Sequence record: PZ386977.1
Origin: a phage
Strand: one strand, 5' to 3'
DNA length: 64,000 nt
Under the pieces are notes generated by a model. It had not been told where the DNA came from and did no database searches. It saw only the letters and a program-made list of their open reading frames with translations. This document shows, one piece after another, positions 8,690 through 49,729 of the stretch. Position 1 is the stretch's first letter. Every line of letters starts with the position of its first letter. Made by a program: the position numbers and the translations under genes.

Positions 8690-9376
8690 TTAGAAGTCGT
8701 GAGTAGAATCGGCTTCCATTGCAATAACATAACTTACTTGAGAGCTTTCAAACTTGGCTGCAACTTTATCACCAGCTCCCCACAACATTACTTTATAGTT
8801 ACCTGGCTGGATTTTCATATTAGCCATATTGATTACGAAGTTAAAGTTATTAGAACCATCATAATCGGTAAGAGTCAAAGAATACTTAGGACGAGTCAAG
8901 CCAGAATCTTCAACTTTATTGTAACCATTGATAACAATTTTACCATCTTTATTTGTAATAGCAATTGTATCAATCTGGAGACCACGTGAAACTCGAAGCA
9001 ATTGTTGAAGGTCTTCAGCTTTAATTTCAGTAATCACAGAAGCCACTGGGAATTGAATTGGCTTATTAGGAAAAACAATGGTGCTCTTGTCGGCAGCAGG
9101 CCAATAAACTGTGGAACGTGTATCTGCAATTTTAATATTGCCGTCAGTGTGCATTGAAATTTCAGCATCATCAGACACTAGACTCAAAATGCTTAAGAAG
9201 CTATTCAAATCATAAAGTGCTACGTCAAAATCAATTTCATCAGAGATATTTGCTTCCGCATAAGTGGTGCCATTAACTGCACGAGTCATAATAAATTTAC
9301 CTTGACTCAACAGAATGCCGGAGTTAATAGAGGCAAAGTTTTTCAGAATAGCGATAGTATCTTTAGACAGTTTCAT
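8690..9376 (-). CDS. 45: sliding clamp gp45
   Basis: MKLSKDTIAILKNFASINSGILL; 228 aa from internal ATG, T4 gp45-like. Confidence 0.9.
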   Translation of the reverse strand: MKLSKDTIAILKNFASINSGILLSQGKFIMTRAVNGTTYAEANISDEIDFDVALYDLNSFLSILSLVSDDAEISMHTDGNIKIADTRSTVYWPAADKSTIVFPNKPIQFPVASVITEIKAEDLQQLLRVSRGLQIDTIAITNKDGKIVINGYNKVEDSGLTRPKYSLTLTDYDGSNNFNFVINMANMKIQPGNYKVMLWGAGDKVAAKFESSQVSYVIAMEADSTHDF

Positions 9377-47537: not shown

Positions 47538-48158
47538 TTACTTACGAGTTTTTGCATACTGAGCAGCGTCAGCAGCCAAACGACCTGCCTGACGAAGTTT
47601 TTCTTTAATCGCATCGTGAAGTGGTTGAGTATACTTCAAACCTTCGATAGTCAAATAAAGACGATAAAGGTCTGGGGTATCAAGGTTGTTGATATGTTGG
47701 CCATTACGAAGACTGTTGAATTCACGAACGAGTGAAGATGTATCGGATTCAATATCACGAACAAGCGAAGATAGTTGTTTATATTTTTTTTCCAGGCTAG
47801 AAGTATCAAACTTAAGAGCAGGAGCTTTAGGAGTTGCTTTTACTTCCGGCTTAGGCTCAGGTTTTGCTTTAGGGGCCGCAGGTTTAGGAACGGTAGGAGC
47901 AGGTTTTACTTTAGGCGAACCCGATTTAGCAGAAACACCACCACTAACAATATCTTTGAATGCTTTAGAAGCTCTGTAATATTCTTTTTGGGTGGAAGTG
48001 TCGATACCGTACATGGCTTGAACGTTTTTGAAAAACTCTGTACTAGTTTTTGTACCAGAAATAGCATCGTAAGCAGCTTGCCATTTCTCTTTTGTCATAC
48101 GTACACCGGCTTCGGTGATTACTTCCGTTTCGGCTAAAAATTCATTAAAAGTATACAT
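47538..48158 (-). CDS. internal-protein-like protein with capsid-targeting leader and Pro/Ala/Lys-rich segment
   Basis: 206 aa; starts MYTFNEFLAE; KVKPAPTVPKPAAPKAKPEPKPEVKATPKAPALK low-complexity block. Confidence 0.65.
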   Translation of the reverse strand: MYTFNEFLAETEVITEAGVRMTKEKWQAAYDAISGTKTSTEFFKNVQAMYGIDTSTQKEYYRASKAFKDIVSGGVSAKSGSPKVKPAPTVPKPAAPKAKPEPKPEVKATPKAPALKFDTSSLEKKYKQLSSLVRDIESDTSSLVREFNSLRNGQHINNLDTPDLYRLYLTIEGLKYTQPLHDAIKEKLRQAGRLAADAAQYAKTRK

Positions 48159-48193
48159 TGATGGTCCTTAGAAAGTGGGTTTATTGTTTACTA

Positions 48194-48201
48194 TATTTAT
48201 A
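48194..48201 (-). promoter_or_regulatory. late promoter TATAAATA
   Basis: minus-strand TATAAATA between tRNA-cluster terminator and the 48158 start. Confidence 0.5.
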
Positions 48202-48202
48202 C

Positions 48203-48230
48203 AAAAAAGCCCCAACCTTTCGGAAGGGGC
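48203..48230 (-). terminator. intrinsic terminator ending the tRNA operon
   Basis: minus-strand GCCCCUUCCGAAAGGUUGGGGC followed by UUUUUU. Confidence 0.6.
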
Positions 48231-48239
48231 TATATACCT

Positions 48240-48420
48240 TGTCGGGGTTTCCACCTACTAAGGCAAGTGTTTGTACGAAACGCCGGGATTCGAACCCGGT
48301 TATTAAGCAGTTGACGCTACTCAATATTTTTAAAAGGCCATATCTCGACCATATCCGAACGTTCCGTCAAAAACGCTACTCGGCCTACGGCAAAGATATT
48401 TCCTCGAATCGATAATTATG
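48240..48420 (-). ncRNA. possible small stable RNA with tRNA-like 3' end (cf. T4 species 1/2 RNAs)
   Basis: canonical T-arm CCGGGUUCGAAUCCCGG at 48283..48299 followed by acceptor-like CGUUUCG, but no cloverleaf could be drawn by hand. Confidence 0.3.
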
Positions 48421-48534
48421 TGCGCCGTTTCTGCTGTGATGTAAGGGGATATTAACGAATCATAAAGATTTATTAAGACCAGTCCTTACTCAGGGAACAT
48501 CAGTCCGACGACTTGCCGGTAGCGACCCGGCTTC

Positions 48535-48879
48535 TTATTTTGACATATCATCAATTTGTTCTCTACGTCTACGCCATAGATTAATTACTTCATCAACACA
48601 TTCGGCGTTTGATATATGACGGCAATAATATAATGATTCGCGTTTCTGGAATCGATGTTGCAATGGGATTTCGTTTAAAAGGTCTTTACGGTCAAAGTAT
48701 TCAAAACTAGTTAACCCAGAACGGTTTTTAAGGAACTTCCAATGACCAAATTCATTTTGAACATAGACGTAATCGGCATGCTGATACAGCGAATTAATTA
48801 ACCTATCGGAAATAACTGTTTCACGTTCGTTAAAATAAAACGTTAAATCATGAACTACCAGATAAACATTGCCTTTCAT
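48535..48879 (-). CDS. hypothetical protein inside tRNA cluster
   Basis: 114 aa from ATG with GAGGAAA SD; track ORF 48535..48927 starts at TTG overlapping tRNA-Arg. Confidence 0.5.
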   Translation of the reverse strand: MKGNVYLVVHDLTFYFNERETVISDRLINSLYQHADYVYVQNEFGHWKFLKNRSGLTSFEYFDRKDLLNEIPLQHRFQKRESLYYCRHISNAECVDEVINLWRRRREQIDDMSK

Positions 48880-48897: not shown

Positions 48898-48974
<77 letters not shown>

Positions 48975-48978
48975 TATT

Positions 48979-49053
48979 TGGCGGACGTGATAGGATTCGA
49001 ACCTATAACCAATCGCTTAACAGGCGATCGCTCTGCCATTGAGCTACACATCC
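48979..49053 (-). tRNA. tRNA-Asn (anticodon GUU), CCA encoded
   Basis: anticodon loop CUGUUAA; T-arm AUAGG-UUCGAAU-CCUAU. Confidence 0.8.
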
Positions 49054-49057
49054 AAAT

Positions 49058-49144
49058 TGGTGGGGAGTGATGGAGTCGAACCACCCGAGTCGCAATGACA
49101 ATGGATTTACAGTCCACACCGCTACCTCTACGGGATAACTCCCC
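49058..49144 (-). tRNA. tRNA-Tyr (anticodon GUA), long variable arm, CCA encoded
   Basis: anticodon loop CUGUAAA; 87 nt; T-arm GGUGG-UUCGACU-CCAUC. Confidence 0.7.
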
Positions 49145-49156
49145 TAATTCATAATT

Positions 49157-49231
49157 TGGTGGCCCTGGGTGGAATTGAACCACCATCTGGCGATTATGAG
49201 TCGCTTGCTTGAACCTTCCAGCTACAGGGCC
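49157..49231 (-). tRNA. tRNA-Ile (anticodon CAU, lysidine-type) or elongator tRNA-Met, CCA encoded
   Basis: anticodon loop CUCAUAA; sits at the T4 tRNA-Ile position. Confidence 0.7.
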
Positions 49232-49232
49232 T

Positions 49233-49308
49233 TGGTGCTGATTGACGGAATCGAACCGCCGACCTTCTCATTACAAGTGAGTTGCTCTACCTACTGAGCT
49301 AAATCAGC
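49233..49308 (-). tRNA. tRNA-Thr (anticodon UGU), CCA encoded
   Basis: anticodon loop CUUGUAA; acceptor GCUGAUU/AAUCAGC. Confidence 0.8.
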
Positions 49309-49313
49309 AAAAC

Positions 49314-49403
49314 TGGCGGAGGCGATAGGATTTGAACCTATGAGTCGCCGGAGCGACTGCCGGTTTTCAAGACCGGTGCATTAAACCACTCTGCCACGCC
49401 TCC
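49314..49403 (-). tRNA. tRNA-Ser (anticodon UGA), long variable arm, CCA encoded
   Basis: anticodon loop CUUGAAA; 90 nt. Confidence 0.8.
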
Positions 49404-49405
49404 AG

Positions 49406-49479
49406 TCTCCATACAAGGATTTGAACCTTGGGCCTCCTGATCCCAAATCAGGCGCTCTACCAAACTGAGCTACACGGAG
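49406..49479 (-). tRNA. tRNA-Pro (anticodon UGG)
   Basis: anticodon loop UUUGGGA; T-arm CAAGG-UUCAAAU-CCUUG; no encoded CCA. Confidence 0.75.
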
Positions 49480-49489
49480 TAAATTAAAT

Positions 49490-49563
<74 letters not shown>

Positions 49564-49568
49564 AAATT

Positions 49569-49655
49569 TGGTGCGAGAAGTGGGACTCGAACCCACAAGG
49601 AAATCATTCCGCAGCATTTTAAGTGCTGTGCCTTTACCAATTTGGCCATTCTCGC
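49569..49655 (-). tRNA. tRNA-Leu (anticodon UAA), long variable arm, CCA encoded
   Basis: anticodon loop CUUAAAA; 87 nt. Confidence 0.8.
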
Positions 49656-49656
49656 G

Positions 49657-49729
49657 CTGGGAATAAAGGACTCGAACCTTTGCATCCTGGAATCAAAATC
49701 CAGTGCCTTACCAACTTGGCTAATTCCCA
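49657..49729 (-). tRNA. tRNA-Gln (anticodon UUG)
   Basis: anticodon loop UUUUGAU; acceptor UGGGAAU/AUUCCCA; abuts tRNA-Leu (dimeric precursor as in T4). Confidence 0.8.

Follow-up and report, generated by a model that had tools for sequence, protein, structure and literature searches.

A probable orthologue of the T4 species 1 RNA (rnaC) in a Mosigvirus-like phage, with a covariation-supported, tRNA-like fold

Species 1 RNA (rnaC) of bacteriophage T4 is a stable RNA of approximately 140 nt that has been known since the 1970s and whose likeness to a tRNA is confined to the acceptor and T arms. In the T4 record (NC_000866) it is annotated as a misc_RNA at 70908..71046, together with species 2 RNA (rnaD) at 71053..71171, and both lie just downstream of the gene for tRNA-Arg. 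The primary transcript is described as spanning the whole tRNA cluster and ending after species I RNA (PMC2330249), and T4 RNAC has been validated by northern blot in a 2022 transcriptome study (PMC9697503). A 2010 review gave the function of the species 1 and 2 RNAs as unknown (PMC3014915), and papers from 2022 and 2025 say the same of rnaC and rnaD (PMC9697503, PMC12685909). In the experimental evolution reported in 2025, the same rnaD mutation arose in all lines adapted to one host (PMC12685909). We found neither a reported function for rnaC nor a published comparative structure in the literature searched, which omitted the primary papers of the 1970s and 80s, and there is no Rfam family for this RNA.

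We have analyzed a candidate small stable RNA in the window, by which we mean the whole stretch of 64,000 nucleotides from phage sequence record PZ386977.1. A preliminary description had noted a perfect T-arm and an acceptor-like strand for which no cloverleaf could be drawn, and had proposed either a homologue of the T4 species 1 and 2 RNAs or a degenerate or unusual tRNA. With a probability of roughly 0.9, we consider the element to be this phage's orthologue of T4 rnaC, an RNA that would fold as a tRNA-like four-way junction, be released by RNase P and owe its stability to a compact fold. The element itself is already known and not new, and within the window it is ordinary: a long-established stable RNA of T4 recurs in a relative, and the reference records either lack it or give it a wrong label. 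The present analysis accounts for the acceptor strand's absent partner, proposes a fold that is backed by covariation and includes kissing loops, and traces how widely the RNA is distributed among phages. The locus is organized as follows, in order of transcription.

48898..49729, minus strand: cluster of ten tRNA genes, in the same orientation as rnaD and rnaC (ARAGORN and Rfam)
~48419..48538, minus strand: rnaD (T4 species 2 RNA) orthologue, immediately upstream of rnaC (alignment with T4 71053..71171)
48274..48412, minus strand: rnaC (T4 species 1 RNA) orthologue, 139 nt (T4 alignment; ends from the T4 annotation)
48235..48265, minus strand: 3' trailer hairpin in the interval between rnaC and the terminator (folding and T4 alignment)
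48202..48231, minus strand: intrinsic terminator of the tRNA/stable-RNA operon, a GC-rich hairpin (48231..48208) followed by six U (direct folding)

The nearest public records of the window are Escherichia phages, namely ECCR664 (99.3% over 751 nt) and the JS09/HX01/RB69 group, and JS09 belongs to the genus Mosigvirus; judged by this sequence similarity, the window is taken to be that of a T4-like, Mosigvirus-like phage. Within the tRNA cluster, the Rfam tRNA model, whose gathering score is 29, gives the tRNA-Tyr gene at 49058..49144(-) no more than 30.2 bits, far less than the 60-74 bits of the other nine. ARAGORN designates 49157..49231(-) a tRNA-Met(CAU) where T4 has a gene annotated as tRNA-Ile; this is presumably an isoleucine tRNA with a modified CAU anticodon. 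The operon terminator was missed by a simple terminator scan because its stem contains internal mismatches. The trailer hairpin at 48235..48265(-) is kept in T4-type phages, T4 included, and may be a processing site for the rnaC 3' end. Both ORFs that neighbor the rnaC/rnaD locus fall in phage families of unknown function. One of them, at 48535..48879(-), encodes 114 aa (phrog_3355), adjoins rnaD on its upstream side and matches DUF2654 only weakly and below threshold. The first bases of rnaD overlap its TAA stop codon (48537..48535), and since this ORF separates tRNA-Arg from rnaD, rnaD would here be cut from the 3' region of an mRNA and not from behind a tRNA. Among T4-type phages, both flanks of rnaD are conserved, and the hairpin between them is exchanged for others, in three or more unrelated versions; rnaD terminates in ACA in the window versus ACCA in T4. 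RNAfold gives rnaD a z-score of -2.66.

Alignment of positions 48240..48540(-) with T4 was continuous from end to end over the rnaD-rnaC stretch, with the flagged T-arm falling inside rnaC, and the proposed homology to the T4 species 1 and 2 RNAs is thereby borne out. Over the 143 aligned positions of the rnaC portion there are three differences from T4 (97.9% identity), all of them structure-neutral: one in an internal loop, one in a bulge and one in a U-A pair that has become U.G. Flanking protein genes are 74-81% identical to those of T4 and the tRNA block is 94% identical, which makes rnaC the best-conserved segment of its neighborhood. The match to the rnaC family obtained with nhmmer has an E-value of about 2e-56. 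The placement is that of the T4 gene as well, with rnaC on the strand of the tRNA cluster and distal to it, rnaD before it and the operon terminator after it.

The features that had first drawn attention to the locus were recovered as described. The T-arm (CCGGG-UUCGAAU-CCCGG) is present at 48299..48283 on the minus strand, which is the strand of the ten tRNA genes, and the 7-nt acceptor-like strand (CGUUUCG, 48282..48276) follows directly and leads into U-ACAA. Both sit between the ORF at 48535..48879(-) and the operon terminator, and the flagged interval, 48240..48420, covers all of rnaC (48274..48412) together with the 3' trailer hairpin. Allowing up to one mismatch, the T-loop core GGTTCGAATCC occurs at nine sites in the window versus 0.91 expected by chance; eight of these lie inside called tRNAs and the ninth is the rnaC T-arm. 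D and anticodon arms could indeed not be drawn, since ARAGORN calls no tRNA at the element and the Rfam tRNA model (RF00005) has no match there even at E<=10. Across the window, Rfam searches at gathering thresholds and at E<=10 returned the true tRNAs and chance-level matches and nothing else. The best related match at rnaC is to tRNA-Sec, at 16.6 bits versus a gathering score of 47, and no tmRNA was called by ARAGORN or matched by Rfam in the window. The preliminary description had also envisaged that covariance models might score the element as random. With the models of Rfam the region does come out near random, since no Rfam family exists for rnaC, whereas a purpose-built covariance model (R1), constructed from 13 sequences that are not of the T4 type, gives a single strong match in the window at 48271..48413(-), with 137.5 bits and an E-value of 3.7e-34. 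The next R1 match in the window, at 9118..9210(-), scores 12.2 bits (E 0.24) and is taken as chance.

Homologues were gathered from a phage collection, IMG/VR and metagenomes, and the 32 distinct sequences make up an alignment referred to here as A3. The loci listed by the metagenome scan were mostly chance matches and were filtered out with nhmmer. A match to rnaC was present in 748 phage records. A3 covers Tequatrovirus, Mosigvirus, Gaprivervirus, Kagamiyamavirus, Kanagawavirus, Winklervirus, Tegunavirus, Gelderlandvirus, Mosugukvirus and Karamvirus, as well as Klebsiella Marfa-like phages, and rnaC thus extends over ten or more Tevenvirinae genera. Copies in other genera lie inside the tRNA cluster, directly flanked by tRNAs and without rnaD; a mid-cluster position between tRNAs is seen in at least five of these genera. 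Kosakonia phage 305 has rnaC with no tRNA within ~400 nt. In phage VR7 (Gaprivervirus; NC_014792 55000..77000, locus L181), the surrounding 22 kb contain a single annotated tRNA (Met), and T4-type rnaD and rnaC are kept, unannotated, in the gap at 65562..65996 between two CDSs. A search of 5,426 complete E. coli genomes and of a plasmid collection gave no match, and a host-derived origin of rnaC was ruled out on this absence from E. coli genomes and plasmids. Public records label the RNA as 'tRNA-Lys(ttt)' or overlay it with CDSs of a 'hypothetical protein', and the JS09 RefSeq record leaves it unannotated. In the Klebsiella Marfa-like phages (L051, L052, L053, L077, L177), the ~65 nt between tRNA-Met and rnaC contain a conserved hairpin, AAGGGGUGG...CCCACUCC, which holds the place that rnaD has in T4-type phages and may be another small RNA.

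Comparison across A3 led to the following assignment of structural elements to rnaC, listed from its 5' end.

48405..48411, minus strand: acceptor stem 5' strand CGAUUCG, pairing with 48282..48276 (covariation)
48402..48404, minus strand: 5' strand AGG of helix 2, which closes the long arm and pairs with CCU at 48337..48335
48338..48401, minus strand: long irregular arm of ~22 bp, at the position of a tRNA D-arm
48365..48370, minus strand: apical loop UUGACG of the long arm, the putative kissing partner, complementary to CGUCAA at 48316..48311
48335..48337, minus strand: 3' strand CCU of helix 2 (covariation test on A3)
48327..48334, minus strand: single-stranded linker UUU-AAAAA, 8 nt (alignment A3)
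48301..48326, minus strand: hairpin 2, with a 10-bp stem and the loop CGUCAA at 48316..48311 (covariation)
48283..48299, minus strand: T-arm CCGGG/UUCGAAU/CCCGG (covariation in the stem)
48271..48282, minus strand: acceptor 3' strand CGUUUCG (48282..48276), discriminator-like U48275 and tail ACAA (covariation test and alignment A3)

No cloverleaf could be drawn because the partner of the acceptor strand is the RNA's own 5' end, ~130 nt upstream (48411..48405). The alignment supports a predicted tRNA-like four-way junction composed of the acceptor stem, a long arm of ~66 nt, the 10-bp hairpin and the T-arm. The 7-bp acceptor stem would stack on the 5-bp T stem to give a 12-bp helix as in tRNA; the acceptor stem runs into helix 2 without a linker, and one unpaired A separates hairpin 2 from the T-arm. 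When 36 pairs were tested on A3 (n=32), 93.2% of cells were paired versus 84.2% in shuffled alignments, and none of 500 shuffles reached the observed value. Changes on both sides were seen at 20 of the 36 pairs, against 1-3 pairs when partners were slid by one to three columns. Support for the fold holds as well on the 13 sequences that exclude every T4-type member. For the window rnaC as a single sequence, RNAfold gives -51.3 kcal/mol (z = -4.23).

The individual helices vary in a manner consistent with this fold. The third acceptor pair, A-U in the T4 type, is G-C in 17 of the 32 sequences. The fourth and fifth are U.U in 30 of 32; the two exceptions are Yersinia phage TG1, where they become U-A and C-G, and Pectobacterium phage PM2, where both become U-A. 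Helix 2 is paired in 100% of the 32 sequences and changes from A-U to U-A in PM2. Seven of the ten pairs of hairpin 2 are changed on both sides in A3 (95% of cells paired), and in the T stem a G-C pair is replaced by U-A in 14 sequences and a C-G pair by U-A in one. In some genera the T-loop does not follow the consensus of tRNAs, as with UGCAUGC in Kanagawavirus. In the linker, the first three to six nucleotides vary and the run of five A is conserved, with 1-nt indels among close relatives (G4507, L025). The tails in A3 read U-ACA-A in the window, U-CCA-A in the Klebsiella-phage type, U-CCA-U in PM2 and U-UCA-A in TG1.

For the long arm there are two sequence types with no kinship in primary sequence and a third version in PM2, and all share one series of helices; total rnaC length stays at 142-145 nt across these types. 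In type A (n=23), 16 of 17 tabulated pairs are paired in all sequences and the 17th has one mismatch. C-G/U-A swaps occur at 16-74 and 25-65, and an extra pair, 15-75/76, is mismatched in 3 of the 23. The loops at the tips of the long arm (UUGACG) and of hairpin 2 (CGUCAA) are complementary in 99.5% of cells across the 32 sequences and covary at two positions, with UUGGCG/CGCCAA in six sequences and UUGAUG/CAUCAA in TG1. This pattern indicates that the two loops form a kissing interaction, as predicted from sequence covariation. Counted in helix lengths, a rod made up of hairpin 2 (10 bp), the loop-loop helix (6 bp) and the apical stem (5-6 bp) would roughly match the lower part of the long arm, making an intramolecular ring plausible; the covariation fits intermolecular (dimer) pairing equally well.

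From this anatomy, rnaC is most likely excised by the tRNA-processing machinery of the host (RNase P). It would be transcribed together with the tRNA operon, as its distal portion, and host RNase P, recognizing the acceptor/T-arm mimic, would cut its 5' end between U48412 and C48411. RNase P needs no more than an acceptor stem with a T stem-loop as its substrate, in which the 12-bp length acts as a ruler and the 3' RCCA makes contact with the ribozyme (PMC11143913). Features of such substrates present in rnaC are the 12-bp acceptor and T helix, the T-loop, a U at position -1 (24 of 32 sequences, the window included) and an RCCA-like tail, of which the window's ACA retains C75 and A76 only. The predicted site, 5' of C48411, lies 1 nt inside the T4-annotated 5' end, which is equivalent to U48412. 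Two U.U mismatches in the acceptor stem and off-consensus T-loops could weaken recognition as a tRNA. Trimming from the 3' side would stop at the stem, and the compact fold, locked by loop-loop pairing, would render the RNA nuclease-resistant, from which we infer its character as a 'stable RNA'.

Several other explanations of the element have been weighed against this reading. That it is a degenerate or unusual tRNA, for instance a tRNA-Lys(UUU) with a long extra arm as in some records, appears very improbable. The label derives some support from ARAGORN, which assigns 94 nt in the 3' two thirds of the G4507 homologue (L002 749..842) to a 'tRNA-Lys(ttt)', a call that GenBank carries, and the linker of rnaC contains CUUUUAA, which is also the 7-mer of the E. 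coli tRNA-Lys anticodon loop. In addition, an internal CGGAACG at 48366..48360(-) could pair with the acceptor 3' strand, the complementarity being 85.7% over the whole family. The G4507 call, however, hinges on a 1-nt deletion in the linker and on use of CGGAACG as the acceptor strand, and neither ARAGORN nor Rfam calls a tRNA at rnaC in the window. The internal pairing shows no covariation (500 of 500 shuffles reach or exceed the observed value) and breaks in TG1, where the acceptor strand has changed, whereas the terminal acceptor pairing is restored by compensatory changes; an internal cloverleaf built on this complementarity was rejected on the same grounds. The complementarity itself arises because GCGUUU is repeated in the apical stem and the acceptor strand, and it may be the relic of a duplication, or else an alternative fold that is not conserved. 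An anticodon-loop mimic in the linker (C-U-NNN-A-A) was likewise discarded. Its C and U are paired in helix 2, and the U, which would be U33, covaries with position 10 (A-U to U-A in PM2). The 'anticodon' region also carries indels of 1 to 3 nt; by genus, the triplet NNN is UUU, UAC, CUU, UCU, UUG, CAU or UAU. The parts of rnaC that are not tRNA-like are under structural selection, as seen in covariation, constant length and covarying loop-loop pairing, and the second proposal of the preliminary description, a degenerate tRNA, is not upheld on this evidence. The 'tRNA-Lys' calls on rnaC are artefacts.

The proposal that rnaC acts only in cis, as processing 'punctuation' of the operon or as a 3' structure protecting the tRNA precursor, with the released RNA a functionless by-product, is unlikely. 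It would fit the position in T4-type phages, at the distal end of the operon and adjoining the terminator, and the literature searched reports no phenotype or target. It does not fit the at least five other genera with rnaC between tRNAs in mid-cluster, nor Kosakonia phage 305, with no tRNA close by, nor VR7, with one annotated tRNA in 22 kb; and the loop-loop pairing, constant length and 98% identity to T4 exceed the constraint expected of a spacer or protective hairpin. From the mid-cluster copies without rnaD and the retention in VR7, it can be argued that the released RNA itself is selected, and not a cis role. That the region encodes a protein seems close to inconceivable, even with ORFs on both strands, including one of 85 aa at 48158..48415(+) in the window, and with CDS annotations overlying rnaC in many records, in several as a 'hypothetical protein'. 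Substitutions track base-pairing and not codon positions, the linker differs by 1-nt indels among near-identical relatives, which would shift any reading frame, and the T4 record annotates rnaC as an RNA, one that is detected as such in T4 by northern blot.

Regarding the role of the released rnaC orthologue, our best guess, chosen because it is most consistent with the anatomy, is that the RNA may mimic a tRNA and thereby occupy some protein that binds acceptor and T arms, such as a processing, modification or defence enzyme. We do not think that it is a decoder or an antisense regulator. In its more specific form, the proposal is of a dedicated mimic on a rigid two-rod body, closed by the kissing loops, that would block or divert a host tRNA-directed protein (e.g. 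a defence nuclease that cleaves tRNAs, or an enzyme of processing or modification); this we put forward tentatively, as a possibility more doubtful than probable. It is equally speculative that Tevenvirinae, even lineages with few annotated tRNA genes nearby, keep rnaC for protein binding. Retention in the nearly tRNA-less VR7 and the convergent rnaD mutation (PMC12685909) suggest that the locus affects fitness. If the mimic hypothesis is true, the 50-year-old 'species 1 RNA' would be an RNA-based factor of counter-defence or host takeover, and its comparative structure, absent from Rfam, would define a new RNA family. A covariance model of rnaC would correct the annotation of hundreds of phage genomes, and the covariation-supported fold supplies concrete mutants for testing.

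Among known systems, T4 rnaC itself is the closest, sharing with the window its length, strand and the order rnaD-rnaC-trailer-terminator at the distal end of the tRNA operon; the difference is that T4 rnaD directly follows tRNA-Arg, whereas the 114-aa ORF (phrog_3355) intervenes in the window. A canonical tRNA (RF00005) has in common with rnaC a 7-bp acceptor contiguous with a 5-bp T stem, a UUCGAAU loop, a single unpaired base after the stem, location in a tRNA operon and a four-way junction. Unlike a tRNA, rnaC is 139 nt long, has neither D-arm nor anticodon arm and lacks a linker from the acceptor to the next helix, and the window copy has two U.U mismatches in the acceptor, no encoded CCA and is missed by tRNA finders. 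No significant Rfam match links rnaC to the tRNA-like RNAs, the best being mascRNA at 14.2 bits, over the T-arm only.

The Y-RNA-like mimics of bacteria and phages (YrlA), and tRNA-like RNAs of viral or cellular origin such as mascRNA, are non-coding RNAs that copy part of a tRNA in order to engage tRNA-handling proteins, and in this they resemble rnaC as proposed here. The termini of YrlA, however, form a Ro-binding stem and not an acceptor stem. The tRNA-like domain of tmRNA, the AT1 model substrate and the P1/P7 C4 antisense RNA precursor differ from rnaC in that rnaC has no tag reading frame, no tmRNA call and no sequence or Rfam kinship with them. They are like rnaC in carrying an acceptor and T helix on a body that is not that of a tRNA, and 5' maturation by RNase P is expected of them, as it is predicted for rnaC (PMC11143913).
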